A DNA stretch of 64,000 nt from Syntrophomonadaceae bacterium (GCA_003560915.1 PWJM01000053.1:891-64890), one strand, 5' to 3'; shown: positions 28,948 through 44,421, counted from the first letter of the stretch. Notes: a model not told the origin generated them from the letters alone. A program made the numbers and translations.

Positions 28948-31689
28948 TTATGCATTTTCTCTTTTGGAATGCAAAAACTTACTGATAACTTCTGCCAGCT
29001 CTTCGATTTTGTAGGGCTTGGATACAACTCCACTGAAACCGTATTCTCTGTAATAAGACATGACAGGATCATTCGAATAACCGCTGGAGACAATGGCCTT
29101 TACTTTAGGGTCAATTTTTAAGAGCCTTTTAATGGTTTCTTTTCCGCCCATTCCCCCTGGTATGGTCAGATCCATAATAACCAGGTCAAAGGGTTTCCCC
29201 TCCTCCAGGTTTTGTATATACATATCTAAAGCTTCTGCCCCATCTCTGGCGAAATCAGACTCATATCCTAAAACGGATAGCATTTCACCGGCAACGTCCC
29301 GTATTTTTTTTTCGTCATCCATGACCAGCACTTTCCCCTGACCGCCGTAATAAACATTCTTTTCCTTCTTTTCTTCTTTATTCTCCTGGAAAGAAGCTGG
29401 CAGGTAAATCCTGAACCGGGAACCCTCACCAGGGCAGGAATCCACACTAATATAACCCCCATGTTTTTTAACAATGGAATAAGAAATGGTCAATCCTAAT
29501 CCTGTTCCCGTTTCTTTTGTGGTAAAGAAAGGGTCAAATATTTTTTGCATATATCGTTCCTCTATCCCCACTCCCCGATCTTCCACAGTTATTTCAACAT
29601 AGTTTCCATAGGGAAGAGGTAAATAGTTCTCCAGGCCATCAGATCCCACTACTATATTGTTAGCTCTTACCTTAATGATTCCTCCGTCAGGCATAGCCTG
29701 TACTGCATTAAGAATAAGATTGTTAATAACCTGCCTGATTTGACCTTCGTCAACCTCAGCCTTTAAAATACTGTCTGTAAAATCAAATTCACTGCGCACA
29801 TTAGAACCACTCAGGGAAAAGGTCACGGCATCCCGAACCAGTTCTTTTAAAGACACCGTTTTCTTCATGGGTTCCCCACCCTTGGCAAAAGTATGAAGCT
29901 GCTGAGTTAATTCCTTTGCTTGCATAGAAGCTTTCTCAATTTCTAAAAGCTTTTTAAAAACCTTGTGGTCTTTTTTAATCAGAAATTTCGATAAGGAGAT
30001 GTTTCCCAAAATAATAGTTAATATATTATTAAAATCATGGGCAATCCCCCCGGCTAAAATACCGATTGATTCCAGCTTACCGGTCTTCTGCATTTCTGTT
30101 TCCATACGCTTTCGTTCGGTAATATCCCGGATCACTGACAGCACCTCTGGACGCCCCTGGTAAGTGATGGGTATAGAGGTTACCTCAATGTCAATAATTT
30201 CTTTTCCCGAGTGAATAATCTTTTGTTCCATGAGGGGCATCACACTCCCCTCCTCGGCTACCTTTTTATTTAAAGTTTTTACAATATCCCAGTAGTCCTC
30301 AGGTAAATATTTTAGAATTGACTGGTCGATGAGTTCATCGGGGCCTTCAACTCCCAGCAATTTTGCTGCCACCGTATTAGCAAAAACCACCTGGTGTTCA
30401 TGATGAATGATGATGGCATCCGGCAGCTGCTCCACCAGCTTTTGATACTGTTCCTTGGTTTTTCGCAGAACCTCTTCTGCCATTCTGCGGTCAGTAATAT
30501 CCCGGGTAATACTGAGAACAGTCTCAATGTTTCCATCAATAGTAAACTCCGGAACAATTCGAGTGTAAAAATACTTCTTCCCCTGGTTTGTTAAATAATA
30601 AGTGTAAATATTTTTTTCTTCCTGGCTGTCAAAAACCATTTTCAATACATCCTGCTGAAGCATTCTGGAGGCTTCTCCCTCGGGCATACCCAGAATATGC
30701 TTATTCTTTAGCACAAATTCTTCCCGGCATATTCCCAATTCCCTTTCTACGGCAGGGTTTACGTAAATGCAGTTGTAATCCTGATCAAAACGGGCAATGA
30801 TATCCGGGGCATTTTCCACCAGAGCTTTAAATTCCTGTTCTCTTTTCTGGAGTTCCTCTTCGAACTGCTTTCGTTCCGTGATATCCCGAACCACAGCCTG
30901 GAGGACATTTCTTCCCTTTAAATTAAAACGGCTCAGCAGAACCTCCGCCGGGAAAACCGAACCATCTTTTCTCCTGTGAATCCATTGATAAAACTTTGTG
31001 CCATCTCTAAAAGCCTCTTCTATATGTTTATTTGCAGCACTGAAAGAATCCTCTCCATCAGGCTGCTGTAGAGGTGATAAATCACAGGGGTGTTTATTGA
31101 TAAACTCTTTTTTTGAGGAATATCCAAATATTTTCAAAGTAGCCTGGTTGCAGTCAAAAAATTCCTTTCGGTCTAATATCATGATGGCATCTGAAGAGGA
31201 TTCAAAAAGGGTTCTAAATTTCATTTCAGAATCTTTTAAAGCCTGTTCAACCTGTTTGCGTTCAGCTATCTCCGTGGTTTGAGGATCCCGGTACTTCTGA
31301 GGGTTTCTAAGATATTCCAGGAAAGCCTTTCTTCTGTCAACAGCAGTTTTTAATTTAAATATTAATTCTTCCTCATTTATGGGAGTAGATAAAAATTGAA
31401 TTCTATCGCTCTTATATTTTTCCAGTATTTCGCCATTCGTCCAATCTGTGAAAATAATAAACTGGATTCCCTGGTCTATGGCTTCTGCTTCTCTTATAAT
31501 AGAGAGGCCCCGGTTTTTTCCCTCTTTACTGCCTACAATGATTATATCCTGGTCAGTTCTGGTCAATATATTTATGGCTTCATCAGCAGATGTACAGGGA
31601 TAAACCTGGCGGCAAAAGTTGTAATTGAGGAGCAAATTTTTTACTTGTTCCCGCATACTTTTATCTTCCTGGACAATTAAAAAATTCAT
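28948..31689 (-). CDS. Hybrid sensor histidine kinase (degenerate REC, three PAS, HisKA, HATPase, REC)
   Basis: Repeated DITERK linkers, H-box GIAHDFNNIL, NAVQA, FFTTKETGTGLGL, C-terminal MDDE...IMD...KP. Confidence 0.93.
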   Translation of the reverse strand: MNFLIVQEDKSMREQVKNLLLNYNFCRQVYPCTSADEAINILTRTDQDIIIVGSKEGKNRGLSIIREAEAIDQGIQFIIFTDWTNGEILEKYKSDRIQFLSTPINEEELIFKLKTAVDRRKAFLEYLRNPQKYRDPQTTEIAERKQVEQALKDSEMKFRTLFESSSDAIMILDRKEFFDCNQATLKIFGYSSKKEFINKHPCDLSPLQQPDGEDSFSAANKHIEEAFRDGTKFYQWIHRRKDGSVFPAEVLLSRFNLKGRNVLQAVVRDITERKQFEEELQKREQEFKALVENAPDIIARFDQDYNCIYVNPAVERELGICREEFVLKNKHILGMPEGEASRMLQQDVLKMVFDSQEEKNIYTYYLTNQGKKYFYTRIVPEFTIDGNIETVLSITRDITDRRMAEEVLRKTKEQYQKLVEQLPDAIIIHHEHQVVFANTVAAKLLGVEGPDELIDQSILKYLPEDYWDIVKTLNKKVAEEGSVMPLMEQKIIHSGKEIIDIEVTSIPITYQGRPEVLSVIRDITERKRMETEMQKTGKLESIGILAGGIAHDFNNILTIILGNISLSKFLIKKDHKVFKKLLEIEKASMQAKELTQQLHTFAKGGEPMKKTVSLKELVRDAVTFSLSGSNVRSEFDFTDSILKAEVDEGQIRQVINNLILNAVQAMPDGGIIKVRANNIVVGSDGLENYLPLPYGNYVEITVEDRGVGIEERYMQKIFDPFFTTKETGTGLGLTISYSIVKKHGGYISVDSCPGEGSRFRIYLPASFQENKEEKKEKNVYYGGQGKVLVMDDEKKIRDVAGEMLSVLGYESDFARDGAEALDMYIQNLEEGKPFDLVIMDLTIPGGMGGKETIKRLLKIDPKVKAIVSSGYSNDPVMSYYREYGFSGVVSKPYKIEELAEVISKFLHSKRENA

Positions 31690-31890
31690 AATCCTCCTCC
31701 TTAAATTCTTTATTAATTACGATTTAAAGATTTATGCCGACATTATCCTGATTGCTTTTTACAAGTTTCTACAAATTATGACAATTTCCTCTCTTGTTTT
31801 TGTTATTTTTCATTAATATTTTCATATAATATTTATGCTATAGTCGCAGAACCGTGGCAGACTTTTCATTCAAGGGTACATGCATAACCA

Positions 31891-31909
31891 ATTTGCCCCG
31901 TGGGCAAAT
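31891..31909 (-). terminator. Hairpin after modE
   Basis: ATTTGCCC-CGT-GGGCAAAT. Confidence 0.5.
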
Positions 31910-31928
31910 ATCTATCTTAGAAACTATA

Positions 31929-32267
31929 TCAGGACCCAGGAAAGTGTTTATTGAATAAAATTTCTAAATATCTGTCAATATCCCTGCGCAGTTCAGTGTA
32001 ATGCTTCAATAATTCTTCCCCTTCCGGAGATAATGTTGACCCTCCTCCATCGCTTCCTCCTACCTGCCGAATCAACAGGGGAAAACCCAAATTTTTTTCC
32101 AACATCCTGATAAGATTCCAGGCCTGGGCATAGGACATGTTCATCTCAGCGGCAGAACGACGCAGGGACCCGGTGTTTTTTATCCCTTGAAGCAGCCGGC
32201 AGGGGCCATCTCCAAATCCCTTACCTTGACCTTCCAGCCATATTTTTGAACAAATTTTGTAAGACAC
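31929..32267 (-). CDS. modE: ModE-family winged-helix regulator (N-terminal domain only)
   Basis: KIWLE...FGDGPCRLL..I..TGSL..SA..MNMSY..AW...GG..GGGSTL; 112 aa with no TOBE domain. Confidence 0.88.
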   Translation of the reverse strand: MSYKICSKIWLEGQGKGFGDGPCRLLQGIKNTGSLRRSAAEMNMSYAQAWNLIRMLEKNLGFPLLIRQVGGSDGGGSTLSPEGEELLKHYTELRRDIDRYLEILFNKHFPGS

Positions 32268-32298
32268 GGCAGCACCTCCTGATATACTGGCAAATATA

Positions 32299-32892
32299 TC
32301 ATTTCATTTTGCTCCTGATTTTTAGTAAATCTTCAGGAGTATCTATATCCCTCAGCACTCCTTCACAGTCCGTTTTCAGTATGCAGGCCCTTTTTCCTGA
32401 GTGTATGATGATGGACCTGCCCCCCTCATCCCCACTCAAATTTTCGAATAGAGGAAAAACTTCTTTACTAAACAATACCGGGTTTCCCCGGATACCCATG
32501 TATTCCGGGTAAACCACCGGACATTGCTGCTCTTGAAACAACTGAATCAATCCCCTGACTACCGCAGGGCTCACCAGTGGAAGGTCTCCCGGGCAGAAAA
32601 TGACAGCCTGGCAGTCAGAGTTAACTGCATCCAGCCCTTTGCGAACAGATGATGACAATCCCTGGTGGTAATCCTCGTTAATAACCGTCTTTAAATCTTC
32701 AAAATTATTCTTTACGTATTTTTCTTTTTCTGAAGCCCTGTGTCCCAATACTACAAATACTTCATCAATCTCGGAAATAAGGACGTTATTTATCGTATGC
32801 CCAAGAACTGTTCCGGAGTTCAGAGGGACTAACAATTTATCTTTTCCCATACGGCTGGAACAGCCCGCAGCTAAAACTACAGCACTAATCAT
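32299..32892 (-). CDS. mocA: Molybdenum cofactor cytidylyltransferase (MocA-like nucleotidyltransferase)
   Basis: VLAAGCSSRMGKDKLL, GLSSS, PGDLP, GNPVLF, GDEGGR, DIDTPED. Confidence 0.88.
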   Translation of the reverse strand: MISAVVLAAGCSSRMGKDKLLVPLNSGTVLGHTINNVLISEIDEVFVVLGHRASEKEKYVKNNFEDLKTVINEDYHQGLSSSVRKGLDAVNSDCQAVIFCPGDLPLVSPAVVRGLIQLFQEQQCPVVYPEYMGIRGNPVLFSKEVFPLFENLSGDEGGRSIIIHSGKRACILKTDCEGVLRDIDTPEDLLKIRSKMK

Positions 32893-33032
32893 AACCTGCA
32901 CTCCCTTTTCCTATACAGGCAGTATAATTTCCATCCAATCAGTTCTTCTTCTAAATATCAGTACCTTCACCCTTTAGAGATACCGGCGAGAATCCCTGGT
33001 TTTATTGTCCCGGTGCAGATTTCACCTGTTTC

Positions 33033-33818
33033 TCACTGGCAAAATATCTCCAGATTTAAATTCGGGTTTCTGCAGGACCCCACAATAACTCTATCAAAAA
33101 AATTATTCTTGAAAAGCCGGTGAATTAATGGTAATATTTTCTGCGCTTGCGATTTCTGGTCCACCTGGTTAATGAATGCGATAATACGGGCATTCCCTGC
33201 CTGAGCCCGGGCTTTTTCAGCCCCCTGTTCCATTAACCGGGCAAAATATTCTATGCCCACGGCACTGCCCGGGGGAGATTCCAGGTATTGAGCTGCCAGA
33301 AAGGCACGATGAATATGTTTTTCTGTTAAAGGTTTACCCAGGGCATTTGCCCCGGCCATCACCACCACCAGGTCGCTGCAGTCAGGTAAATTTGGCTCAT
33401 GGGATTCATAACTTTTGATTGGTTTCCTCCGGGAGCCGTCCGCTTCCACCAGAACCCTATGAAAGATATCTGCACCTTTTAATTTTTCAACCAGGTCAGG
33501 GGAAATCCCCTTTACTTTATTTTCCTTCAGGTGCCTGGAAGCCAGGAATACCAATTTTTCGTCTGTTTTTACCGGATAAGTTGTCAGGAATTTTTCCGAA
33601 GAACTTTCACCGTTATGTTCCCGGCTTAATATGATGCTTTTATCCACTTCAACTTCCCCGGGCATAAACATTTGGGTGGTAGTAGTTAGAAGGACATGAC
33701 TCCCCCCGTCCTTCAATTCTCTTCCCATCTGAAATAAAAAGGTAGTTTTCCCCCCCGCACCCATAACCGCTATTACCTTTTCCATGTCACTTAATCCGAC
33801 AGCTTCAATGAGCAGCAT
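33033..33818 (-). CDS. yqeC: Selenium-dependent hydroxylase accessory protein YqeC
   Basis: GAGGKTT, TTTTQM, VEADGSRRKPIK...HEP. Confidence 0.88.
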   Translation of the reverse strand: MLLIEAVGLSDMEKVIAVMGAGGKTTFLFQMGRELKDGGSHVLLTTTTQMFMPGEVEVDKSIILSREHNGESSSEKFLTTYPVKTDEKLVFLASRHLKENKVKGISPDLVEKLKGADIFHRVLVEADGSRRKPIKSYESHEPNLPDCSDLVVVMAGANALGKPLTEKHIHRAFLAAQYLESPPGSAVGIEYFARLMEQGAEKARAQAGNARIIAFINQVDQKSQAQKILPLIHRLFKNNFFDRVIVGSCRNPNLNLEIFCQ

Positions 33819-33873
33819 GGACAAACTTCCTTTCTGGTAGTCAGTGCCTGCCTAAAACACCTAGTTATAGACG

Positions 33874-34599
33874 TTATAATCCTCTTACCGCAAATACAAA
33901 AACAAAAGCAGACGTTAAAACAACCCCCATGACCAGGTAATCCGTTCTGGTCAGTACAATATCCCGGTAATATGTCCGCTCAGGAGAACTCCTGAAACCC
34001 CGCATTTCCAGCAGTATGGCAAGCTTTTCGGTTTTCTGCCAGACACTGTATATCAGTGGAGAAAATAGATTGGTATAAAAACGTAAGATTTTTCTCCTGT
34101 ACACTTTTCTCATGTCCACTCCCCGCAGCTGAATAGAGTTAATGATATTCTGCAGCTCTTCAAACATTACGGGCATAAAACGGATTCCCAATTGAATCAT
34201 AAATGCCACTTCATACGGAACTCGCATTTTTACCAGGGCCAGTACCAGTTCCTGGGGATCACATCCCGCCATCAAAAGGGCTGAACAGGCCAGCACCAAA
34301 AAGCGAAGAAGAATAGATATTCCATAATAAATGCCCCCGGTGGTCAGAAGCACTGCTTCCCCCACCTGCCACAGGGGTTCCCCCTCTCGAACGAAAAAAC
34401 TCTGCATAACAATCAAACCTGAAAACATGAAAACAAATCCCTTAAACCCCCGAAGCAGGAGAAAATTTACCCGAAACAATGCCAATACCAGCAGGTTTAA
34501 GGCCAATAAAATCCCCAGAATCCTTGGATTCTGATAGATCAGGGCCAGTAAGGAAAACACTACTACTACCAGCATTTTAGTTCTCACGTCTACCTTCAT
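33874..34599 (-). CDS. ecfT: ECF transporter T component (EcfT/CbiQ family)
   Basis: Multi-pass membrane protein with RFMP, QLRG and LEMRGF motifs. Confidence 0.9.
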   Translation of the reverse strand: MKVDVRTKMLVVVVFSLLALIYQNPRILGILLALNLLVLALFRVNFLLLRGFKGFVFMFSGLIVMQSFFVREGEPLWQVGEAVLLTTGGIYYGISILLRFLVLACSALLMAGCDPQELVLALVKMRVPYEVAFMIQLGIRFMPVMFEELQNIINSIQLRGVDMRKVYRRKILRFYTNLFSPLIYSVWQKTEKLAILLEMRGFRSSPERTYYRDIVLTRTDYLVMGVVLTSAFVFVFAVRGL

Positions 34600-35254
34600 T
34601 TTCCCTCACCTCACCTTCTATCATGTGAAGACTTCTTCGGTTCAACCCCTGAATAAATTCCCGGTCATGGCTGATAACAATAGTCCCGGTTCCCTGTCTC
34701 CATATATCCAGCAGTATTTCTTTAAGCTTTTTTTTCCCCTCAGTATCAATACTTTTGGTAGGCTCGTCCAAAATGAGAAAATCAGGCTTTAGTGCCAGTA
34801 TAGAAGCCAGCACCAGCATTTGTTTTTGGCCTTCGCTTAGATTGAACGGGAATTCTTCCCGCAGGTGCCACAGGTTGAAATATTGCAGAAGTTCCCGGCA
34901 TCGCGCCATAACCTCTTCTTTTTTAACTCCCCTCCACTTTAATCCAAAAGCTGCTTCATTAAATACCGTATTATTAAAAAGCATTTGGCTGGGATTTTGA
35001 TATACAAAACCAATCTTTCTTCCCCGTTCTGCCAGGGAGTACTGTTTCACAGGCTTTCCCTGTAAGTGAACAATGCCAGATTGGGCGGAAAGAAGCCCCA
35101 CCATCAGCCTTGCCAGGGTTGATTTGCCGCTGCCGTTTAAGCCGGTTATGGCCACCTGCTCCCCCGGATTAAAATGTTGGGATACATTTTTTACAGCCGG
35201 GACTGTTTTTCCCGGGTATGTAAAAGTAACATCTTTTAGGGTTATATAAGTCAT
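34577..35254 (-). CDS. ECF transporter ATPase
   Basis: GLNGSGKST, YQNPSQ, LSEGQ, LDEPT, ISHD. Confidence 0.9.
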   Translation of the reverse strand: MTYITLKDVTFTYPGKTVPAVKNVSQHFNPGEQVAITGLNGSGKSTLARLMVGLLSAQSGIVHLQGKPVKQYSLAERGRKIGFVYQNPSQMLFNNTVFNEAAFGLKWRGVKKEEVMARCRELLQYFNLWHLREEFPFNLSEGQKQMLVLASILALKPDFLILDEPTKSIDTEGKKKLKEILLDIWRQGTGTIVISHDREFIQGLNRRSLHMIEGEVRENEGRREN

Positions 35255-35323
35255 AACATCACCGCTTCTTCTGTTATTCTTAGGCGCGCTTCATGGGAAA
35301 GAAAACATCATTTTTGACCTGCT

Positions 35324-35400
35324 CTGCGACAATTGGAACCATCCCCCGCTGCAGCATAAACCTGTTTTGCGACAAAAAGAAAACCGTCCCCGGGTGTCGC
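35324..35400. repeat. Tandem pair of REP-like ACCGTCCCC hairpins
   Basis: GCGACAATTGGAACCATCCCCCGCTGCAG followed by GCGACA-AAAAGAAAACCGTCCCCGGG-TGTCGC. Confidence 0.65.
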
Positions 35401-35420
35401 AATTATTATATATTTGCTCA

Positions 35421-36134
35421 TTAACCTGGGGATAAAGTAATTTCATTTTCCTTCGTCATTTTGTTGGTGCCTGTTAGTTTGGCCCTGCCTAAAAGAAATA
35501 TCTTATCATAAAGCCCGCGGCCCCTGGAGGTGTGATCCACAATGACCAGGGTTTTTCCCCTGTCTTTCAGCTTCTTCATTACAAATAAAATTCTCTGGGA
35601 GGCCATCTCATCCAGCATAGAAAGGGATTCATCAAAAATTAATAGGGAAGGATTTAAAGCCAGAACTGAGGCCAGGGCTGCCAGCTGCTTCTGCCCCCCC
35701 GATAAATTGTTAGGATTTTCTCCTCTCAATGGAGTAATTCCCACTAAATCCAGGGTTTCATTAACAATTTCTTTCATTTTCTCCCGGGGAACTCTCTGGT
35801 TCTCCAGTCCAAAGGCGATTTCATCCTCAACGGTTGGCATTAAGATTTGAATCCCCGGGTCCTGAAGAACTATGCCAACATCAGAAGTCAGCTGGTGCAG
35901 AGAAACCTGACCGCTGTCTGTACCCTTGATAAACACCTTTCCATCCATTTTGCCGGAAAGACAGTGGGGGATGATTCCGCAGAGGCAGTAACACAGGGTA
36001 GTCTTTCCACTACCGTTAGAACCCGAGATTCCCAGGACCTCTCCCGCCTGCAGGCTGAAGCTGACCCCATTTAAAACTGGTTTTTCATAATTTTCATAAG
36101 TAAAACCTAGATTTTTTACCTCCAGTATCTTCAT
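35421..36134 (-). CDS. ECF transporter ATPase
   Basis: GSNGSGKTT, LQDP, EDEIAFGLEN, LSGGQKQ, FDES. Confidence 0.9.
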   Translation of the reverse strand: MKILEVKNLGFTYENYEKPVLNGVSFSLQAGEVLGISGSNGSGKTTLCYCLCGIIPHCLSGKMDGKVFIKGTDSGQVSLHQLTSDVGIVLQDPGIQILMPTVEDEIAFGLENQRVPREKMKEIVNETLDLVGITPLRGENPNNLSGGQKQLAALASVLALNPSLLIFDESLSMLDEMASQRILFVMKKLKDRGKTLVIVDHTSRGRGLYDKIFLLGRAKLTGTNKMTKENEITLSPG

Positions 36135-36185
36135 GAAAAAAACCCCCATACAAAAATATTTTATAACATTTTTCAATCCGCCGTT

Positions 36186-36758
36186 TTACCCGGAGGTACT
36201 TATTTCTTCAGGTTTTTTCCCACCTTTGAAAAGGTCCACCACTTTAGACAATCTGAAACCAATTACTCCCCCCATGCCGCCTGTTATCAGGGATACTCCT
36301 AATGATACCATAAGGGGAATATAAGGCACCCTCAGAAAAAGAGCATTTACAATCAAAGAACCTGTGGTGTTAGCAATGGCTCCTGCCAAAAAACCGCTGA
36401 ACAGCGAAGAGACATATCTAGGGAATAAAAGCATTCCCATCTCCAGGGTAATCGTTGGCACCACATAAACCAGCAGATTGGCAATCCCCCGATTGCCCAG
36501 CATATCAAATACCACTACCAGAATAGATTGAACAACTCCTACCATTACGGCCGTCCCTCTTTTTTTCACAATACTGCAGGCCAGTACAATCCACAGCATG
36601 TAAATAACGCCTCCCAGAGTACCTGCAGACATAAAGGAACCGGTAAAAACCTGCGCCAGAATTCGAACAAAAGGTTTGGAAGCAACTCCACAGGCTGAAA
36701 GCAGGGCAATTATAATTAAATCAAAGGTGGTAAACCGGCTTAATAATTTATTTAACAT
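36186..36758 (-). CDS. Probable ECF transporter S (substrate-binding) component
   Basis: 190 aa, about six hydrophobic segments, FTTFDLIIIALL N-terminus, directly upstream of ecfA/A'/T. Confidence 0.75.
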   Translation of the reverse strand: MLNKLLSRFTTFDLIIIALLSACGVASKPFVRILAQVFTGSFMSAGTLGGVIYMLWIVLACSIVKKRGTAVMVGVVQSILVVVFDMLGNRGIANLLVYVVPTITLEMGMLLFPRYVSSLFSGFLAGAIANTTGSLIVNALFLRVPYIPLMVSLGVSLITGGMGGVIGFRLSKVVDLFKGGKKPEEISTSG

Positions 36759-37512
36759 GTAAATCTCTCCTTTCCCAGGTAATTAAATTGCTTTTTCTGG
36801 GATTTGGAACCCAGAACATCCCGTTTTTTATGGTGAGATGATTAAGAATGTGATCTTTTACCAGCTTAACATCTGGAATACCCAGCTTATCGCTTAAAAA
36901 AACTGCGCAGTTATTTATTTCACTTTTCCCCCGCAGGGGCAGGCCAAAGTCATACTCCAGTAACTCTACCTCCACCTGCTGCCCCATATTTTCAAACAAA
37001 GGCAGCAGGTCCTGATTCTCAAAAACCGGAGGCTCTATGCCTGTAGTCTGGTACAAATCCCCGCTTAAAAAGTCTTTCTGCACCCTGTCCCAGGGAGCGA
37101 TAAAAAAAGCCATGCGGGTAGTATGCTGTAAAACTTTTTTAATTCCCTCCAGAGTACCAATGCTGCCGCAGAAACAATAAGCACAGATGGAAACTTCCGT
37201 GGGTATTACTTCTACCTCCAACCAGTCACCATAAATGGTTTTAATATTACTCAAATTCAGGGCTTTCTTCCGTTTTTCCAGGGCTTTTAGATTAGTATTA
37301 CTGATGTCCACAGCCTGTACATCATAGCCTCTACGGGCTGTATGTATGGTGAACGCCCCGGGGCCGCACCCTATATCAATCAATGTGGAACAATCCGATC
37401 CCCGAATTTTCTGTTTCATCCTTTCCCAGGGAACTGAAGGATATTCACTGTGCTCGATTCCCTGGTAATAGCTATCTATCTGCTCCTCTGACCATACTTT
37501 TTCCGCCGGCAT
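36748..37512 (-). CDS. Class I SAM-dependent methyltransferase
   Basis: LIDIGCGPG, AVDIS, YGDW motifs. Confidence 0.85.
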   Translation of the reverse strand: MPAEKVWSEEQIDSYYQGIEHSEYPSVPWERMKQKIRGSDCSTLIDIGCGPGAFTIHTARRGYDVQAVDISNTNLKALEKRKKALNLSNIKTIYGDWLEVEVIPTEVSICAYCFCGSIGTLEGIKKVLQHTTRMAFFIAPWDRVQKDFLSGDLYQTTGIEPPVFENQDLLPLFENMGQQVEVELLEYDFGLPLRGKSEINNCAVFLSDKLGIPDVKLVKDHILNHLTIKNGMFWVPNPRKSNLITWERRDLHVK

Positions 37513-38113
37513 TCATACACCCCCTTACAAAGGAATTCACCTTAAATAAAGTCTCCTGAAGATTTTCCTCCTTAACCAGGAGAAGTTCTACCTTTGGATG
37601 CTTTTTAATTTTTTCCAGCACTTCTTCCCTCTCAAAGCATCCTTTTTGATTACCCAGCTTTTGGTCCATTTTTCCTGCATTTCTAGAAGTTTTTAATACC
37701 CCCAGGCAGGAAATATATCCATCAAGAACCTTCATCAGTAAATTTGTAAATTCAGGAAATGCCAGCTCCACTCCCCCAATTTCATCCATTAAAATAATCT
37801 TTTTCCCTTCAGCTTTTGCCCTCTTCAGTGCACACAATCCTGTTTTAATAAAAATTTCTTTTTGGACTTTCCACCGGTTTCCCGTACAGTACAGAAAAGG
37901 CTCTACCTCAGAAATACTTTGGACATGTTTTTCCAGCACATACTTCTCCTTATCCTCAAGGCTGTTTAAAGTAAAGGCCTGGTACCGATCGCCCACATAT
38001 ATTCTTTGGACAAAGAAACCCCCGGACATTTCTCCATATGGCAGCAGGGCCTGTCGGATTATCTGGGATTTCCCCAGTCTCATGTCTCCTTCCAAAAACA
38101 GGTGTCTTTTCAT
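37472..38113 (-). CDS. NTPase_1/THEP1-like nucleoside triphosphatase
   Basis: P-loop variant GDMRLGKS, GGFF, LMDEIGGVE; ATG at 38113 after GAGGAGG. Confidence 0.75.
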   Translation of the reverse strand: MKRHLFLEGDMRLGKSQIIRQALLPYGEMSGGFFVQRIYVGDRYQAFTLNSLEDKEKYVLEKHVQSISEVEPFLYCTGNRWKVQKEIFIKTGLCALKRAKAEGKKIILMDEIGGVELAFPEFTNLLMKVLDGYISCLGVLKTSRNAGKMDQKLGNQKGCFEREEVLEKIKKHPKVELLLVKEENLQETLFKVNSFVRGCMNAGGKSMVRGADR

Positions 38114-38163
38114 TTCCAGCCTCCTCTTTGAAAAGAACCGTATATTATCCAACACAGGTACAT

Positions 38164-39000
38164 TTAATCCAATGCTTTAGCCGCATAAGCGTACCTGTTC
38201 TTCTGCACCCCACAGGTAAGACATAAAACTGCTTCCAAAACTCCCCCGGCTACCGACCTTGCCTTATCCGATATGGTGAAACAGTAATCCCTTTGGGCCC
38301 GGGGGTCGATATCTCCCACTTTCATCCCCGGAAAAACCGTCAGGCCTGGATACAGCAGCCCTCTTACTATACCGGAGATACCGGCTTTTATGGATATCCC
38401 ATCCACCCGGGCAACCTCGTCTCCCTCCTGGACATGGTCCCCAATACTGCAATTCGTTTCAAAAACACCCTCCGCAGGTGACCGCAAAAGTCTTTCCACT
38501 GTATAACCACCAATATTTCCCGGTATTCCAGTGTTAGGAATAGCTTCTCCCCGGTAAATCACTTTTCCCAGGTTGTGACCCCGGGAGGTCTCCACCACAG
38601 CATGAACATCTCTTCCGGCACAATATCCGGGGCCAAGGGCAACCACCACCGGGGCGCTTTTCATGGTCACTCCCGTATTTCGCTTTGAGACAGTACCCTC
38701 CACTAACACTTCAAAGGGAAGCCAGGAAAGATATTTCAGTTTCGGGTTAATCAACAGCGGGATTTCCCCCCTGTCAAGAAACTTCAAGGTTTCTTCCGGA
38801 CTATCCACCCTGCGGGCAGTAATTCCCTCCACCTGCATTTGACCATCTAAGGCTGCCTGGGCAAAGGAAACCGTTCGGCGAACCAGGGTAGGTTTTTCCT
38901 GTTCTATCATAACTACCTTCATCCCCGCCTGGTAAAGTCGATGGGCTGTTCCACTGGCCAGATCACCAGCCCCTTTAATCAGCACGATTTTAGAATACAT
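38164..39000 (-). CDS. yqeB: Selenium-dependent molybdenum hydroxylase system protein YqeB
   Basis: IKGAGDLASG, RRTVSF, ALGPG, ETSRGHNLG, PNTGIPG, KVGDIDPR, SDKARSVAGGVLE. Confidence 0.93.
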   Translation of the reverse strand: MYSKIVLIKGAGDLASGTAHRLYQAGMKVVMIEQEKPTLVRRTVSFAQAALDGQMQVEGITARRVDSPEETLKFLDRGEIPLLINPKLKYLSWLPFEVLVEGTVSKRNTGVTMKSAPVVVALGPGYCAGRDVHAVVETSRGHNLGKVIYRGEAIPNTGIPGNIGGYTVERLLRSPAEGVFETNCSIGDHVQEGDEVARVDGISIKAGISGIVRGLLYPGLTVFPGMKVGDIDPRAQRDYCFTISDKARSVAGGVLEAVLCLTCGVQKNRYAYAAKALD

Positions 39001-39811
39001 CCATGTTCCCCTCCATTTTTACCGGGCCCATATTTTTTACCCGCAGTACCTGTGCCATAATACTCAGGGCAATCTCTTCAGGGCTGTTTCCCCCCAGGTT
39101 CAATCCAATGGGAGCATAAACTCTTTGCATCAGTTCTTTAGAAACCCCTTTATTTACAAGGTTTTCAAATACCTTTCGGGTTTTCACCTTACTTCCAATC
39201 ATGCCTATATACCTGGCGTCGGAATCTACTACCTTTTCCAGGGCAGCCTCGTCGTGTGAATGACCCCGGGTAACAATTACGATGTAAGTATTCCCGGCAA
39301 TTGAAAAGCCTGCCAAACCTTCTTCTATATCCTGCACCAGGATTCTGTTTGCATCCGGAAACCTCTCACGGTTGGCAAATTCTTCCCTGTCATCTAATAC
39401 GGTCACCTTAAATTCCATCATTTTTGCCAGTCGGGCCAGGTATAAAGAAATATGTCCCGCTCCTATAATGAGCATGTGGGGAGGCTCAAGATACGGTTCA
39501 ATAAAAACGGTTACCTTTCCTCCGCAGACCATTCCCAGTTCTGCCGCATCCTTCCCGGTCAGATCATACTTAAAAAATCCTGCACAACTGTTATTGATGG
39601 CATCCACGGCATCCTTGATTACCTGCATTTCCAGGCTTCCTCCCCCCACGGTGCCCTGTGATTTCCCGTCTTCGTAGACGAGCATTTTTGCCCCCGCCTG
39701 GGCAGGTGTAGAACCCGAAGACTTTACCACAGTAGCCAGAGCCGTGGGAATGTTTTCCTCAATACACCGGGATAGTTCTTTAATGATTTCCTTATTTTCC
39801 ATGCCGTACAT
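38990..39811 (-). CDS. xdhC: XdhC/CoxI-family molybdenum-cofactor chaperone
   Basis: GSTP..GAKM, GTVGGG, CGG, GAGHIS, TRGH..DE, GMIGS, PIGL..GG.SPEEIALSI. Confidence 0.92.
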   Translation of the reverse strand: MYGMENKEIIKELSRCIEENIPTALATVVKSSGSTPAQAGAKMLVYEDGKSQGTVGGGSLEMQVIKDAVDAINNSCAGFFKYDLTGKDAAELGMVCGGKVTVFIEPYLEPPHMLIIGAGHISLYLARLAKMMEFKVTVLDDREEFANRERFPDANRILVQDIEEGLAGFSIAGNTYIVIVTRGHSHDEAALEKVVDSDARYIGMIGSKVKTRKVFENLVNKGVSKELMQRVYAPIGLNLGGNSPEEIALSIMAQVLRVKNMGPVKMEGNMDVF

Positions 39812-39890
39812 CCCTCCTTTGAGCTATTCTGCTTACGGAAACGCTTTACTGCATCCCGGGTTGTTATCCCTCTCAACCAAATATTTTGAC

Positions 39891-39914
39891 GGTTATACTG
39901 CACCGGGTATAACG
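39891..39914. promoter_or_regulatory. ModE-like operator palindrome
   Basis: GTTATAC-8 nt-GTATAAC perfect dyad, about 80 nt upstream of xdhC. Confidence 0.55.
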
Positions 39915-40087
39915 AGCAGAAAAATTGGGATATTCGCTCTTCTTTAGAAGTTTGAATATCGCAAGATTGCTGAAACTTATTATTCTAACCGTGTTTTCTG
40001 GCTTTATCTTCTATTATATAAATGCTGTCGCCGGGCTTGAATAATACCCTGGCCCCTTCTATTTAAACGCTATTTCCCGAAAAAGAT

Positions 40088-40137
40088 TGTGTCGGGACTA
40101 TTTCTCATGAATTTCCATGAGAAACAGTCCCGATACA
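40088..40137. repeat. 22-bp-stem hairpin after the Mo-subunit gene (terminator or stabiliser)
   Basis: TGTGTCGGGACTATTTCTCATG-6 nt-CATGAGAAACAGTCCCGATACA, 20 of 22 Watson-Crick pairs. Confidence 0.6.
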
Positions 40138-40176
40138 GAAAAGGAGGTTATATAAATCACAGTTTAAAACCTGCTT

Positions 40177-42492
40177 TTATTCACAGGATTTTAAACTCTC
40201 CTGTAAAGCCATATAGATTTTTTCTTCGGTCATTGGAATTTCAAAGAAACGGACTCCAATGGCATCGTATACTGCATTCATGATGGCTGCAGCCGTAGCG
40301 ATTAAACCCGTCTCACCGACGCCCTTAACATTAAAGGGATGGGTAGGTTCATCACTCTCCACAATGATTGCCTGCAGTTCGGGCAGGTCAACAGCGGTGG
40401 GCAGCATGTATTTGTGGAAACCTGTGTTTAACTGTCTGCCATTTTCATCATAAAGGATTTCTTCAGTTAATGCATATCCATATCCCTGGGCCAGGCCTCC
40501 TTCAATTTGGCCCTCCACAATAGTGGGGTTAATGGCTCTACCCACGTCATGGGCAGCCACCAGCTTATTAACGGTAACTTTTCCGGTCTCTGTGTCTACT
40601 GAAACATCCGCAAAGTGTGCCAGCCAGGGAGGTGCGTTTTGGGGCACCACTTTAGCCACTCCAATGAACTGCTCTCCCTTGAACTGTGCCTGTATGGTAA
40701 CTTCTCTAAGGGAAATTTTCTTATTAGGATTGCTTTTGGATACAATCATGTTGTCAACAATGTCCAGGTCCTGAACGTCCTGTGCACAGTAAATACAGCT
40801 TTCTCTTTCTGCCAGAAGCTTTGCAGCAAACTCCAGCGCTTCTTTCTTAACCTGCGCTGCCGCCTGGGTCACCGCCATGCCCACTACGTAACAAGTCCGA
40901 CTGGCATGAGCACCAATTTCAAAGGGTGAACTTTCGGTGTCAGCAATGGTAACTTCTATTTTGTCCATAGTTACACCCAGTGTTTCCGACACCATCTGGG
41001 ACAAGGTCGTCTGCACCCCGGTTCCCATTTCTGGGGAACCTACGGCAATCTGCACCGATCCATCCTGCTGTATATTAACATAAGCGTTGGAATAATCGCC
41101 GCAGAAGGGCCAGGCATTGGACACGTGGGTTCCGCAGGCCATTCCAATACCTCTTTTCACCGAACCGCTATTATCAAAAGTGCCTTTCTTATCCCAACCA
41201 ATGGCCGCTGCTCCCTGATCGATACATTCCTCCAGAGCAATACTCTGGCATTGGTAGGGGAGAACCCATTCTCCTCCAACCTTCATCATATTCTTCTTGC
41301 TGATTTCCCTGCGGTCAATTCCCAGCTCCTCGGCAATAATGTCCAGCTGTGCTTCAATAGCTGTGGAGGCCTGAGGGCTTCCAAACCCCCGCATAGCACC
41401 GGAAGGGGTGGTATTGGTATAAACAGCAATTCCGTCATAGTACTGGTTAGGACAGCTGTAAAGGGAAAGCCCCATACATCCCAATACCCCGTGGGTCTCC
41501 GTGCTGAAACTGCAGTAAGCACCGGCATTAAGAACGGCTTTCATCATTCTGGCTGTAAAAGTGCCATCTTTTTTAACACCGGTCTTTAAGTATACATATC
41601 CACTGTGTCTGGTATCCGATGACGTAAAATCTTCTTCCCGGTCATAAACAACTTTCACCGGTCTTTTTGCTTTCTGGGCCAAAGCTATAGCTATGGGTTC
41701 TGCTTTTGCAGATAGGCCGATTCTCACCCCAAAGCCGCCACCGATGAAGGGGGGGCTCAATACCCTTACTTTGCTGTAAGGAACATCAAACAGGTCGGCA
41801 AGTATAGCACGGCTGGGGTGAACCGTTTGCGTGCTGGAATACACGGTGATTTTCCCGTCAGCGTCAATGGTGGCTACAGCAGCCATGGTTTCCATCTGGC
41901 ACTGCTTTTGTACAGGCAGTTTAAACTCATGTTCAAAGATATAGTCTGCATCTTCAAAACCTTTTTGTATATCCCCCAGTTCCAGGTGAATTTTTTCCCC
42001 GGGAAGATTTTTACCATGTTCACGGGGGCCTTGAAGGTCAGGGGCCTCCTCCTTATTCGCTTCCTTAGGGTCAAATACGGAAGGAAGCTGTTCATATTCC
42101 ACTTCAATCAGCTTTAATGCCTCTTGGGCAATTTCCTCTGTTTCGGCAGCAACTGCTGCCACTTCATCACCCACATAACGCACCACATCATCAAAAATCC
42201 TTTGGTCTTTTACAGGTACCAGGGGCGGCAGGGTAAAGACTATGGTGGCAGAAGTATTAAATAATTTACTGGTGGTATTCTTATGGCAGATTACCGCCGC
42301 TACTCCCGGCAGCTGTTCAGCTTTCGTGGTATCAATATTTACTATACGAGCATGTGGATACGGACTGCGCAAAACTTTGGCGTACAACATTCCTGGCAGA
42401 CTTACGTCGGAAGTAAAACAAGGTGCGCCAACAGCCTTCTGTGTCCCGTCGTATCTAGGGAGCCTTTTACCAACAACAGAATAGTTTTTCAC
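40177..42492 (-). CDS. Xanthine dehydrogenase-family molybdopterin-binding subunit
   Basis: LRSPYPHARI, GGGFG, AMRGFGSPQ, GAHASR, INP..VEGQIEGG, KGVGE; GTG start after AGGAGG. Confidence 0.93.
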   Translation of the reverse strand: MKNYSVVGKRLPRYDGTQKAVGAPCFTSDVSLPGMLYAKVLRSPYPHARIVNIDTTKAEQLPGVAAVICHKNTTSKLFNTSATIVFTLPPLVPVKDQRIFDDVVRYVGDEVAAVAAETEEIAQEALKLIEVEYEQLPSVFDPKEANKEEAPDLQGPREHGKNLPGEKIHLELGDIQKGFEDADYIFEHEFKLPVQKQCQMETMAAVATIDADGKITVYSSTQTVHPSRAILADLFDVPYSKVRVLSPPFIGGGFGVRIGLSAKAEPIAIALAQKAKRPVKVVYDREEDFTSSDTRHSGYVYLKTGVKKDGTFTARMMKAVLNAGAYCSFSTETHGVLGCMGLSLYSCPNQYYDGIAVYTNTTPSGAMRGFGSPQASTAIEAQLDIIAEELGIDRREISKKNMMKVGGEWVLPYQCQSIALEECIDQGAAAIGWDKKGTFDNSGSVKRGIGMACGTHVSNAWPFCGDYSNAYVNIQQDGSVQIAVGSPEMGTGVQTTLSQMVSETLGVTMDKIEVTIADTESSPFEIGAHASRTCYVVGMAVTQAAAQVKKEALEFAAKLLAERESCIYCAQDVQDLDIVDNMIVSKSNPNKKISLREVTIQAQFKGEQFIGVAKVVPQNAPPWLAHFADVSVDTETGKVTVNKLVAAHDVGRAINPTIVEGQIEGGLAQGYGYALTEEILYDENGRQLNTGFHKYMLPTAVDLPELQAIIVESDEPTHPFNVKGVGETGLIATAAAIMNAVYDAIGVRFFEIPMTEEKIYMALQESLKSCE

Positions 42493-42502
42493 GTTATCCC
42501 TC

Positions 42503-42982
42503 CTACTTACCATTTTTTAATATTTCCGCTGCTTTTTCCACTGCTTCTTCTATCTTGACAAAGCCTGTACACCTGCAAACATTGCCGGCAAGAGCCTGTT
42601 TAATTTCTTCTTTGGTGGGTTTAAGATTTTTGTCTAAAAGCGCTTTACTGGACATAATCATTCCGGGAGTGCAGAATCCACATTGAATGGCTCCGCAGTC
42701 AATAAAAGTCTGCTGTAGCGGATGCAGCCCATTACCATTGGAAAGCCCTTCAATAGTTTGTATTTCTGCCCCCACAGCCTGCATGGCAGGAACAATACAT
42801 GAATTAACTGCTTTCCCGTTCATTATGATAGTACATGCACCACATTCACCTTTCCCACAGCCTTTTTTAACTCCTTTTAGTCCTAACTCTTCCCTAAGTA
42901 CATCCAACAAAGTATCTCCTGGCTCAACCATCTTCTCTACGGTCTTACCGTTAACCACCATGGTCAGTGTTTTCTTGTTCAA
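42503..42982 (-). CDS. Xanthine dehydrogenase-family [2Fe-2S] subunit
   Basis: KKGCGKGECGACT...NSC; QCGFCTPG...NVCRCTG. Confidence 0.95.
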   Translation of the reverse strand: MNKKTLTMVVNGKTVEKMVEPGDTLLDVLREELGLKGVKKGCGKGECGACTIIMNGKAVNSCIVPAMQAVGAEIQTIEGLSNGNGLHPLQQTFIDCGAIQCGFCTPGMIMSSKALLDKNLKPTKEEIKQALAGNVCRCTGFVKIEEAVEKAAEILKNGK

Positions 42983-43012
42983 ATCATGGTCCCTCCTTTT
43001 TTCTATTTGACA

Positions 43013-43873
43013 TTACTGCCTGGCATTTTTTATTGCTTCAGTAATGCCTCGTTTAACCAAATTCACCAGCACAGAAGAACGGTAAGCCCGGGAACCCCTG
43101 AGCTTACTGTCACGGGGATCAGCCATGGCTGCCGCCTTTTTCGATGCTTCCAGAATTACTTCTTCCGAAGGTTCTTTGTCCTTAAGAAGTTCTTCTGCTT
43201 CCAAGGCACGCAGAGGTTTTGTAGACACAGGCGCCATTACAATACGCACCCATTCAATTTTGCCATCCTTGAGGGAAGCCGCCACTGCGACACAAAGCAT
43301 GGGAAGTGCCAGGGCTCCTCTCTTAGCCAACCTTACATAAGCAGAGCCCTGGTTAGAGAACAGCGCAGGGAACCTTACCGCGGTAATTATCTGACAGGAG
43401 CTGTCCACCTTACATTTGGCTAATCCGGCGTAAAGATTTTCCACCGGCTGATATATTGTTCCTTCCTTATCAACGATCTCAGCTTCAGCCCCCAAAGCCA
43501 CCAGGGCTACGGCAGCATCAGCCGCCGGTTGAGCATTTACAATATTACCCACCACCGTGGCAGTATTTCGAATTTGCAGGGAACCTACAGAGCCAGAAGC
43601 CTTCGCTAAAACTACAGCTTTTTCTTGTATCAAGAAAGATTCAGCCACCTCTTGATGAGTGGTTCCGGCACCTATGATAATATTTCCATCGGATTCTTTA
43701 ATACCTTTCAATTCTTTAATTCCGTTAATATCTACCAAAGTATCAGCAGCAGCCTTACAGGACTTAAGGTCCAGCATCAGGTCGGTGCCGCCGGCAATCA
43801 GCTTTGCATTTCCCTGCTTTAATGCAGCCAAGGCATCTTCTACAGTCTTAGGCAAAACATAATCATTAATCAA
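43013..43873 (-). CDS. Xanthine dehydrogenase-family FAD-binding subunit
   Basis: LIAGGTDL, IGAGTT, QIRNTAT..GNIVNA.PAAD. Confidence 0.93.
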   Translation of the reverse strand: MINDYVLPKTVEDALAALKQGNAKLIAGGTDLMLDLKSCKAAADTLVDINGIKELKGIKESDGNIIIGAGTTHQEVAESFLIQEKAVVLAKASGSVGSLQIRNTATVVGNIVNAQPAADAAVALVALGAEAEIVDKEGTIYQPVENLYAGLAKCKVDSSCQIITAVRFPALFSNQGSAYVRLAKRGALALPMLCVAVAASLKDGKIEWVRIVMAPVSTKPLRALEAEELLKDKEPSEEVILEASKKAAAMADPRDSKLRGSRAYRSSVLVNLVKRGITEAIKNARQ

Positions 43874-44070
43874 TTCAGTTTCCCTCCTTCTTTTATTACC
43901 TTATTGAACGCAGCTTACCAAAAGCTTTTAAGTTCTTCTCACCTCCCCGTGAAATATTTTATTAATATTAAAGATAGGTAAATAGGTGAAAATTTCAGGC
44001 AAAAAACCGGATACATGGATTCGACATTATTCGACTTTTTATCTGGTTTTATGTAGTATTTAATTTCATA

Positions 44071-44095
44071 TTTCGACATATTTTTTAATATTCCT
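44071..44095 (-). promoter_or_regulatory. Sigma-H-like promoter upstream of the hydroxylase genes
   Basis: Minus strand AGGA-17 nt-GAAA (GTCGAAAT). Confidence 0.4.
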
Positions 44096-44315
44096 TCCCC
44101 TTTTGAAAAGTTTTTACCATGTAAGATGGATTTCTTCCATGTAAAATATCCTCTGTTTTCCCCTATTTTACTACCTTTATGACAGATACACTAAAACAAT
44201 ATTAATAATTTTTAACAAAAATAATAAACTCGCACATTACGAGCTCATTCGACAAATTATTCATTTTATCTCCTGGGAAATCAGGGAGTCAGGAGAAAGT
44301 GAGAGGTGAGTCAGA

Positions 44316-44344: not shown

Positions 44345-44355
44345 CTAAAATAAAA

Positions 44356-44384: not shown

Positions 44385-44421
44385 ACATTTTTAAGCCTTC
44401 ATGATTAAGTTTGATTAACTT

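Follow-up and report, generated by a model that had tools for sequence, protein, structure and literature searches.

The window analyzed here, a 64,000-nucleotide stretch of DNA from a Syntrophomonadaceae bacterium, contains a six-gene unit that most likely represents an uptake route feeding molybdenum-cofactor assembly. The genes code for a P-loop NTPase, a methyltransferase and the S, A, A' and T components of an ECF importer. The reading that we favor, with a probability of roughly 0.6, is that of a ModE-repressed ECF importer for a compound related to the molybdenum cofactor, accompanied by two helper enzymes.

ORF calling combined with Pfam and NCBIfam searches of the window recovered all fourteen co-directional genes in the order listed by an earlier note on this sequence, every one of them on the minus strand. 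The first three code for an XDH-family Mo hydroxylase: its FAD-binding subunit (43013..43873; PF00941, PF03450), its 2Fe-2S subunit (42503..42982; PF01799, PF00111) and its molybdopterin-binding large (Mo) subunit (40177..42513; PF01315, PF02738, PF20256), the closest solved relative of which is 4-hydroxybenzoyl-CoA reductase alpha (PDB 1RM6, 393 bits). A spacer of 365 nt then precedes the gene for an XdhC-family Moco chaperone/insertase (38990..39811; PF02625, PF13478; NF045664, 300.8 bits). Just 3' of the Mo subunit gene this spacer holds a minus-strand stem-loop followed by a U-run (40088..40137), identified by its folding energy (-33.8 kcal/mol, z -7.67, equaled by 0 of 200 shuffles), which is probably a terminator or processing site. 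The spacer also holds a ModE-type dyad found by motif match, GTTATAC-N8-GTATAAC (39892..39913), and the transcription of the structural genes is thus probably separate from that of the maturation/ECF genes. The two small matching contigs of one metatranscriptome both fall within the Mo subunit gene.

The xdhC gene overlaps by 11 nt the gene for YqeB (38164..39000; TIGR03309, 345.6 bits, cut-off 220), a marker of selenium-dependent Mo hydroxylases. The six-gene unit follows, beginning with a THEP1-like NTPase of the NTPase_1 type (37472..38155; PF03266), the true start of which is most likely the ATG at 38113, behind AGAGGAGG. Next come a class I SAM methyltransferase specific to the module (36748..37512; recognized by its sequence family and AF2 model), the S component (36186..36758; PF09819, 36.3 bits, cut-off 25.2), ATPase A (35421..36176, with a likely start at ATG 36134; PF00005), ATPase A' (34577..35254; PF00005) and a CbiQ-type T component (33874..34599; PF02361, 115 bits). 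The other overlaps described earlier are likewise present, namely NTPase/methyltransferase (41 nt), methyltransferase/S (11 nt) and A'/T (23 nt). Beyond the unit lie YqeC, a selenium-cofactor accessory protein (33033..33824; TIGR03172, 153.9 bits, cut-off 73; PF19842), a MocA-type Moco cytidylyltransferase (32299..32901; PF12804; TIGR03310, 182.3 bits, cut-off 186.45) and a 112-residue protein with a ModE N-terminal HTH domain (31929..32267; PF00126, 37 bits). A PAS/histidine-kinase/receiver hybrid, assigned by domain matches, lies directly downstream on the same strand (28948..31689) and is part of the same accessory segment. In the complete genome of a sister species of the same genus the cluster is absent and a deletion scar is present, which joins the cluster promoter region, the 3' end of yqeB with the 5' half of the NTPase gene, and the kinase receiver domain. 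This scar suggests that the cluster is a unit of inheritance.

Several Bacillota lineages share the gene order NTPase-methyltransferase-S-A-A'-T, which is conserved colinearly in about 22 genomes counted at species level; the methyltransferase gene is missing from only one of these loci. The arrangement is therefore not due to chance, and the literature search found no paper describing it, in keeping with the earlier description of the route as new. In nine of the approximately 22 non-redundant loci, from at least seven genera, the unit stands directly behind xdhC and/or yqeB (the window, L001, L005, L011, L015, L016, L020, L025 and L028); ModABC-like genes adjoin it in L005 and L016. The common order among the relatives is [modE]-[yqeC]-yqeB-xdhC followed by the unit, so that the insertion between yqeB and yqeC, on which the earlier note had built, is seen in the window only. 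About half of the units have no Mo or Se gene beside them and lie isolated among housekeeping genes. This weighs against the explanation favored here, and homologous modules located mostly away from Mo/Se genes had been named as grounds for doubting the link. No cobalamin riboswitch, the example given with those grounds, was found in the window or in 10 related loci.

The stand-alone units nevertheless keep an operator of their own. In 20 of 23 loci the dyad CGTTATAC-N8-GTATAACG, with at most 2 mismatches in 16 positions, precedes the start of the NTPase gene by 10-130 nt, in most cases by 25-35 nt, and does so even where xdhC is directly upstream. The median for control windows is 6 mismatches. 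In the window the operator lies instead about 80 nt upstream of xdhC and is the sole good copy in the genome. In L016 the same box precedes a gene for a ModA-like binding protein, and in L024 it stands before modE itself. It matches both the ModE motif proven by EMSA in M. acetivorans, RTTATGT-N8-RCATAAY (PMC12327845), and the E. coli ModE consensus (PMC545781), sharing with these regulons the 7-N8-7 geometry, the half-site GTTAT..ATAAC and the position near the start of an uptake operon. These observations suggest that the primary tie of the unit is to molybdenum regulation rather than to selenium. Thus, the proposal that the six genes belong to a Mo/Se system holds as far as a real unit tied to molybdenum is concerned, with the tie to Mo regulation coming before that to selenium.

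A gene for a ModE N-terminal domain adjoins the unit in six loci, homologues of the 112-residue protein of the window being located beside it in L001, L020, L024, L025 and L085. The protein of the window is the candidate regulator that may bind the dyad. It contains no Mop/TOBE domain, unlike the regulator of ModABC, and its score against TIGR00637 is 63 bits compared to a cut-off of 98.5. The absence of a molybdate-binding domain weighs against the favored explanation. ModE proteins with a single domain have been described from Desulfovibrio (PMC545781).

The parallel between this operator and the ModE control of modABC (PMC545781) speaks for a rival explanation, in which the metal itself is the cargo. 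The unit would then be a ModE-repressed ECF importer of molybdate, tungstate or, in sulfidic habitats, thiomolybdate/thiotungstate, with the NTPase acting as a metal-trafficking chaperone and the methyltransferase removing thio ligands or detoxifying co-imported oxyanions. The carriers do come from sulfidic anaerobic environments, namely soda-lake sediments and digesters. We consider this explanation unlikely. Mod/Tup-type ABC systems, which differ from an ECF importer in relying on a binding protein, are already present in L005, L016 and the genome of the window. The latter has a TupA-like ABC system on contig C44, outside the window, where a mod/tup transporter was rightly said to be missing. 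As the same genome also has MoaA, MoaC and three MoeA-like genes, neither cofactor salvage nor oxyanion uptake by the unit is obligatory in this organism, which is a point against the favored explanation as well.

With the T component and both ATPases encoded beside the S gene, the unit has the architecture of a dedicated (group I) ECF system, from which ATP-driven import is predicted. The two ATPases find their best NCBIfam match in ECF_ATPase_1 (TIGR04520), at 197 bits for A and 175 bits for A', below the equivalog cut-off of 315 bits, and are therefore divergent. The AF2 model of the S component has six long helices (pLDDT 82.3), and its top fold matches in the PDB are ECF S components (5EDL, RibU, ThiT and PanT), the best being YkoE (5EDL; TM 0.75, rmsd 2.9 Å, identity 16%). 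Known metal ECF systems use S components of the CbiM/NikM type, and the nearness of the fold to the vitamin-type YkoE speaks against the metal as cargo. The profile of the S family found no match in the PDB, 5EDL included, at E ≤ 1, and 235 representatives match it among 1.84 billion. The classification called for by the earlier note thus leads to a genuine ECF S fold in a small family distinct from YkoE. A YkoE-type thiamine/HMP S component was considered and rejected on this missing profile match and on the absence of the TPP riboswitch RF00059 from the window and 10 related loci, which were scanned for cobalamin riboswitches with the same outcome. As in YkoEDC, the group I thiamine/HMP system of Bacillus subtilis, one operon holds the S gene together with dedicated A, A' and T genes, and the PF09819 match above the cut-off is a further resemblance. 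Unlike YkoEDC, the unit is preceded by a ModE-type operator (or, in the sister clade described below, by a Moco riboswitch), includes two extra conserved enzymes, and has xdhC/yqeB rather than thiamine genes as partners.

The same evidence bears on the idea that the unit imports the heterocyclic or aromatic substrate of the hydroxylase, or an unrelated vitamin or metal (thiamine/HMP, cobalt), and is merely located in the cluster. Catabolic clusters often hold substrate transporters, Pfam places the S component in PF09819, and the T component and the ATPases bear 'cobalt' names. However, hydroxylase structural genes occur near the unit only in the window and one other locus, and neither the ModE operator nor the recurrent adjacency to xdhC/yqeB would be explained, which together with the stand-alone units and the riboswitch scan makes this idea very improbable.

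The preference for a cofactor-related cargo rests on a sister clade of S proteins, 33-40% identical to the window clade. A Moco riboswitch (RF01055) is found upstream of the sister clade in 11 of the 14 loci scanned, as well as in L030, and in neither the window nor the window-clade loci scanned. The sister operons (L029-L049, L080-L083) add molybdopterin-fold lipoproteins (PF00174), a lipoprotein phosphodiesterase (PF01663), MobB, a kinase-like protein and MoeA. Seven carrier genomes of this clade, 90-99% complete, lack both MoaA and MoaC (odds ratio 8.1, p = 0.0009, a value that, like the one given below, ignores phylogeny and stems largely from incomplete MAGs). The riboswitch, the operon content and the loss of MoaA/MoaC favor a pterin as the cargo of the family. 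Mo/W transporters, too, are usually controlled by a Moco riboswitch, which would suit a metal cargo, but the molybdopterin-fold lipoproteins, the phosphodiesterase and the genomes without MoaA and MoaC would then be left unexplained. No publication on ECF operons under Moco riboswitches was found.

The two systems have homologous S, A, A' and T components and Mo-specific regulation in common, and an NTPase_1-methyltransferase pair stands beside several of the sister operons. The S component matches those of the riboswitch operons at 35-40% identity. In contrast to these operons, the window clade has no riboswitch, exported pterin-fold proteins, phosphodiesterase, MobB or kinase (homologues of the sister-type lipoprotein, phosphodiesterase and MobB are absent from the whole genome of the window). 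It has the ModE box, is overrepresented next to xdhC/yqeB and among genomes with YqeB, and occurs in genomes able to make the cofactor. The two S clades share D13, K28, Y53, W56, Q77, Y98 and N130 and differ at the pocket-candidate residues C61, R67, T69, D85, N89 and N94. These differences, together with the lack of exported molybdopterin-fold proteins and phosphodiesterase in the window clade, suggest that the cargo may differ between the clades. On balance, the cargo in the window is given somewhat less than even odds of being the cofactor in a pterin form, or in the form of a breakdown product or precursor; molybdate, tungstate or a thio-form would be a rather unlikely cargo.

The two helper enzymes accompany both S clades. 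The NTPase has a Walker A (GDMRLGKS) and a Walker B (ILMDEIGG) motif, matches PF03266 at 53.4 bits (cut-off 23.9) and resembles PDB 1YE8 (E = 7e-4). The second enzyme is by fold and motifs a class I SAM methyltransferase with predicted catalytic activity: its AF2 model (pLDDT 92.6) matches more than 1400 methyltransferase structures at E ≤ 0.001, and all of 29 aligned sequences retain DIGCGPGAF, D69 and GDW. The protein also has a conserved C-terminal substrate domain (DFGxP, H221, WVPNPRKS). The family is essentially restricted to the unit, a search of 5.8 billion clustered proteins giving 34 matches. Even homologues as distant as 24-29% identity adjoin NTPase_1 and lie next to S/lipoprotein/riboswitch operons, XdhC, or ModE and a MoCF_biosynth gene. 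The Foldseek search returned generic small-molecule methyltransferases and no specific substrate class; the structural neighbors include thiol S-methyltransferases, a point in favor of the metal as cargo. We know of no SAM-dependent step in Moco handling, which together with the generic Foldseek result weighs against the favored explanation.

The association with yqeB anticipated by the earlier note was found. Of 22 carrier genomes, 20 have YqeB; within the class it occurs in 15 of 17 carriers versus 62 of 132 (47%) non-carriers (odds ratio 8.5, Fisher p = 0.0014, again without regard to phylogeny). SelD is encoded in 21 of 23 carrier genomes; in that of the window, selD was located outside the window, on contig C166 (2845-3771, 393 bits, one in-frame TGA). 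With YqeB and YqeC above their curated cut-offs, a MocA-type protein, SelD in the genome and a hydroxylase likewise of the XDH family, the cluster corresponds to the YqeB/YqeC/YgfJ(MocA)/SelD set (Haft and Self 2008, PMC2276186), and labile selenium in the Mo center of the hydroxylase is predicted. The published set has no transporter, NTPase or methyltransferase (PMC2276186), and 62 of the 77 YqeB genomes in the class have no ECF unit, which is therefore an optional add-on and not a core part.

It could be argued from these numbers, and from the position between yqeB and yqeC, that the S component imports an organic or inorganic selenium compound and that the methyltransferase methylates selenium as TehB/TPMT-like enzymes do. 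The methyltransferase has a weak TehB-family match, but this is limited to the generic SAM-binding motif. The operator is of the Mo type with no Se signal, YqeB occurs in only 5 of 20 carrier genomes of the riboswitch-associated sister clade, and the NTPase-methyltransferase pair is found there too. A selenium route is thus improbable, and the unit is tied to molybdenum first and to selenium statistically. Among the three cargoes proposed earlier, the one related to the Mo/W cofactor is supported by the sister clade, the heterocyclic substrate is disfavored, and the selenium compound is disfavored less strongly.

By combining these observations, it is possible to describe how the importer of a cofactor-related compound might work. 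A ModE-type repressor would bind the dyad, and a shortage of molybdenum would induce the unit. The S component would capture the compound outside the cell, and A, A' and T would drive its import. The kinase-like, THEP1-like NTPase and the methyltransferase might then act in the cytoplasm on the imported compound or its remainder. The product would pass to the XdhC/MocA/YqeB/YqeC line, which would load the MCD cofactor and labile selenium into the hydroxylase. A more specific version, offered tentatively as a possibility, is a Mo-starvation pathway that takes up environmental Mo/W cofactor or pterin-dithiolene remains. The usable part would go to XdhC, MocA, YqeB and YqeC, and the remainder would be processed by the NTPase and a dedicated S- or N-methyltransferase. 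In human cofactor breakdown, S-methylation makes urothione, which offers a parallel for the methyltransferase.

The general view is that bacteria produce their own molybdenum cofactor and import only molybdate or tungstate, and our literature search found no description of a cofactor or pterin importer. In the window, a small and conserved ECF unit under Mo regulation is linked directly to xdhC, yqeB, yqeC and mocA, the genes for cofactor insertion, and the sister system is under riboswitch control in genomes unable to form the first intermediate of the cofactor. With few genes, and with the ModE box or the Moco riboswitch as a clear read-out, the two systems make the notion of the cofactor as a vitamin directly testable. 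If the uptake and recycling of the cofactor or its remains proves true, it would be the first bacterial route of this kind and would include the first SAM-dependent step in Moco handling, and the Moco-riboswitch operons would be a sister system serving auxotrophs. Two orphan families, the bacterial THEP1-like NTPases and a dedicated methyltransferase family, acquire through the unit their first functional context, and the maturation of selenium-dependent hydroxylases, which is poorly understood, gains an optional module.

The following observations tie the putative ECF importer of the window to genes of molybdenum and selenium enzyme maturation. ORF calling combined with Pfam and NCBIfam finds all the genes listed in the earlier note, on the minus strand, and ORF calling also bears out the overlaps claimed between them. 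The FAD, 2Fe-2S and Mo subunits of an XDH-family hydroxylase, the closest solved relative of which is 4-hydroxybenzoyl-CoA reductase, occupy positions 43873-40177. They are followed by XdhC, YqeB (TIGR03309, 345.6 bits, cut-off 220), the NTPase (PF03266), a class I SAM methyltransferase, the ECF S component (PF09819), two ABC ATPases (A and A') with a CbiQ-type T component, YqeC (TIGR03172, 153.9 bits versus 73), a MocA-type cytidylyltransferase and a ModE N-domain protein of 112 residues. The Mo subunit gene is separated from xdhC by a spacer of 365 nt, which contains a highly stable hairpin (-33.8 kcal/mol, z -7.7) and, 80 nt 5' of xdhC, the perfect dyad GTTATAC-N8-GTATAAC (39892-39913). The hydroxylase genes and the maturation and ECF genes are probably two transcription units. 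On co-transcription the one metatranscriptome is uninformative, with just two short contigs, both inside the Mo subunit gene. The probable start of the NTPase is the ATG at 38113, which has a strong Shine-Dalgarno sequence upstream. The gap between the two ATPase genes, 166 nt in the window as against 50-90 nt in related loci, holds a hairpin GCGACA...TGTCGC with the loop GGGGACGGT (35345-35390).

The six genes from the NTPase to the T component are a single conserved unit. The S component of the window falls in a close-knit clade (56-86% identity) whose members come from Bacillota metagenome genomes only. Species-representative genomes, when scanned, yielded 25 loci; about 22 of them keep the exact order NTPase-methyltransferase-S-A-A'-T, and the methyltransferase is absent from just one lineage. 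The S family as a whole is small (235 representatives among 1.84 billion), and its sequence profile has no match in the PDB. The best fold match of the window S model is YkoE (5EDL, TM 0.75), from which the family is separate by sequence. Some S-family members among P0104, P0106, P0108, P0110 and P0114 are 300-690 residues long, a length that suggests additional domains fused to the S component.

A search of 5.8 billion clustered proteins yields 34 members of the methyltransferase family, located on contigs that also carry S genes; the family is therefore dedicated to the unit. Intact SAM motifs are accompanied by a C-terminal domain with invariant DFGxP, His221 and WVPNPRKS. Other Bacillota families have full-length homologues with 24-29% identity, which likewise adjoin an NTPase_1 gene. 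The NTPase-methyltransferase pair is divergent from riboswitch-controlled lipoprotein-S-...-MobB operons in four loci (L080-L083), adjoins an S gene in L084 and L085, and adjoins xdhC in L086. Judged by gene neighborhood, the pair accompanies the S family rather than one clade. The NTPase is similar to Aquifex THEP1 (1YE8, a PDB deposit with the title 'kinase-like'). Fold matches of the methyltransferase model (pLDDT 92.6) are confined to generic small-molecule methyltransferases (TM 0.5-0.65), dithiol S-methyltransferases among them, so that no substrate class is assigned. Remoter methyltransferase homologues (26% identity; L087:5307-10707 and L088) adjoin a binding-protein ABC system, whose 802-residue binding protein includes a beta-propeller part; no NTPase or S gene is near them. 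A further locus (L089, G045:C30, 7017-9181) has, in this order, a methyltransferase homologue, a Moco riboswitch (8190-8307) and an ABC ATPase gene, an arrangement that may represent a third type of transporter partner.

The link of the unit to molybdenum and selenium genes recurs in relatives. The NTPase gene is directly preceded by xdhC and/or yqeB in the window and in L001, L005, L011, L015, L016, L020, L025 and L028, and these arrangements are spread over seven genera or more. The placement of the unit between yqeB and yqeC, described in the earlier note, is true of the window and is not the usual order of related loci. The commonest order is [modE]-[yqeC]-yqeB-xdhC-NTPase-..., and the placement seen in the window is therefore peculiar to it. 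Genes of Mod-type ABC transporters adjoin the unit in L005 and L016. The remaining units are embedded among housekeeping genes, and no hint of function came from the neighbors of these stand-alone units (dihydroorotate dehydrogenase, PriA, AlaRS, YceG, PBP, P-type ATPase, FGAM synthase, DnaX).

YqeB is present in 20 of 22 carrier genomes, and SelD in 21 of 23. A co-occurrence test across the 149 genomes of the class shows enrichment of YqeB, in 15/17 carriers versus 62/132 non-carriers (odds ratio 8.5, p = 0.0014, uncorrected for phylogeny). Because of this enrichment a selenium compound is still conceivable as the cargo of the importer, if rather improbable. The window has neither selD nor mod/tup genes, as stated earlier; selD is found elsewhere in the same genome, on contig C166 (2845-3771), and a TupA-like ABC system on contig C44. 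This selD has one in-frame TGA, as has selD of 20 other carrier genomes; these are SelD proteins of the selenocysteine type.

The genome of the window has no other good copy of the dyad that lies upstream of xdhC. In 20 of 23 related loci a box with at most 2 mismatches in 16 is found 10-130 nt, mostly 25-35 nt, 5' of the NTPase start, the median for control windows of the same loci being 6 mismatches. Where xdhC adjoins the NTPase gene, the box falls between the two, at times as tandem copies (L011, L015, L016). Further boxes lie ahead of a ModA-like gene (L016), of modE (L024) and of a modE-MoCF_biosynth-NTPase-methyltransferase-S string (L085). Geometry and half-site agree with the EMSA-proven ModE motif of M. 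acetivorans, RTTATGT-N8-RCATAAY (PMC12327845), and with the E. coli consensus (PMC545781). The unit thus belongs to a predicted ModE-type regulon, and from the box position the unit would be repressed under Mo-replete conditions. Riboswitch control of this clade is rejected: neither the window nor ten loci of the clade contain cobalamin, TPP or Moco riboswitches, and the association with cobalamin riboswitches that would have spoken against the earlier proposal is not seen there.

A sister clade of S components (L029-L049, 33-40% identity to the window S) is regulated differently. The two clades have in common a polar core (D13, K28, Y53, W56, Q77, Y98, N130) and diverge at C61, R67, T69, D85, N89 and N94. 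L030 and 11 of 14 further sister loci have Moco riboswitch aptamers (RF01055) on the strand of the S gene, 0.1-2.2 kb 5' of it, and the ModE-type box is absent from all riboswitch-type loci examined. One RF01055-bearing locus, L032 (G169:C1:1527000-1544000), comes from a complete genome of the same genus as the window, where two serial riboswitches (9656-9776, 12764-12883) precede the sister operon; the genome of the window, in contrast, has the ModE-type unit only. The operon of L041 starts with the riboswitch, two lipoproteins with the PF00174 molybdopterin-binding fold and S, and continues with a PF01663-phosphodiesterase lipoprotein, a membrane-anchored PF00174-like protein, A, A', T, MobB and a kinase-like protein. 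MoeA is often downstream of the sister operon.

Seven genomes from four genera (G141, G142, G143, G155, G156, G162, G163; 90-99% complete) are without both MoaA and MoaC, yet all have the sister ECF operon as well as Moco riboswitches, and in four of the seven MoeA directly follows the operon. Sister-clade carriage is associated with the joint absence of MoaA and MoaC (OR 8.1, p = 0.0009), and these genomes are candidate natural cofactor auxotrophs. The PF02391 (MoaE) profile had almost no matches in 14 genomes, MoaA- and MoaC-bearing ones included. This negative is given no weight: MPT synthase may have a highly diverged large subunit in the class, or the search may have overlooked it. The sister-clade pattern is consistent with uptake of the cofactor in a pterin form and not with an importer of oxyanions.

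Soda-lake and salt-lake metagenomes are the origin of the window, which belongs to the genus Candidatus Contubernalis. YqeB and the S clade of the window are both missing from the complete genome of Ca. C. alkaliaceticus. Window 28880-44415 (15.5 kb), with a hybrid kinase and the entire Mo/Se/ECF cluster, is an accessory segment. The genes that flank it (bshC with a tRNA methyltransferase at one end, spoIVA at the other) are syntenic in Ca. C. alkaliaceticus but enclose 12.3 kb of unrelated DNA there. A scar of the cluster is found in a different neighborhood of Ca. C. alkaliaceticus (L092; CP054699.1, 842164-860583; locus positions 8690-9764). It joins 66 nt of the cluster promoter region (window 44274-44209), the 3' end of yqeB plus NTPase codons 1-132 (38325-37762), and, from the hybrid kinase downstream, its receiver domain (29359-28948). 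This make-up indicates that the ancestor had the whole cluster in window order, and that the sister species lost it via two deletions.

By combining these observations, the best-supported reading is a ModE-repressed ECF importer with two helper enzymes. A ModE-type regulator would repress the unit, the importer would bring in its cargo, and the NTPase and methyltransferase would act on the cytoplasmic side, together supplying the XdhC/MocA/YqeB/YqeC line. As cargo, a compound related to the Mo cofactor is most likely. We give a pterin form a probability of about 45%; a Mo/W oxyanion or thio-anion is less likely, though more so than a selenium compound. Three points weaken this reading: the genome of the window can make the cofactor itself and has a Tup-like transporter, the S clade of the window is without exported pterin-fold proteins, and cofactor handling has no known SAM-dependent step. 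Cofactor auxotrophy as the purpose of the unit in this genome is ruled out by the presence of MoaA, MoaC and MoeA.

No paper in the literature searched ties this methyltransferase, a THEP1-like NTPase or an ECF transporter to Moco or its riboswitch, to XdhC or to YqeB/YqeC, and none of the three is in the set published by Haft and Self in 2008 (PMC2276186). The unit is thus an ECF importer of a type already known, whose regulation and partners are new and whose class of cargo is probably new as well.
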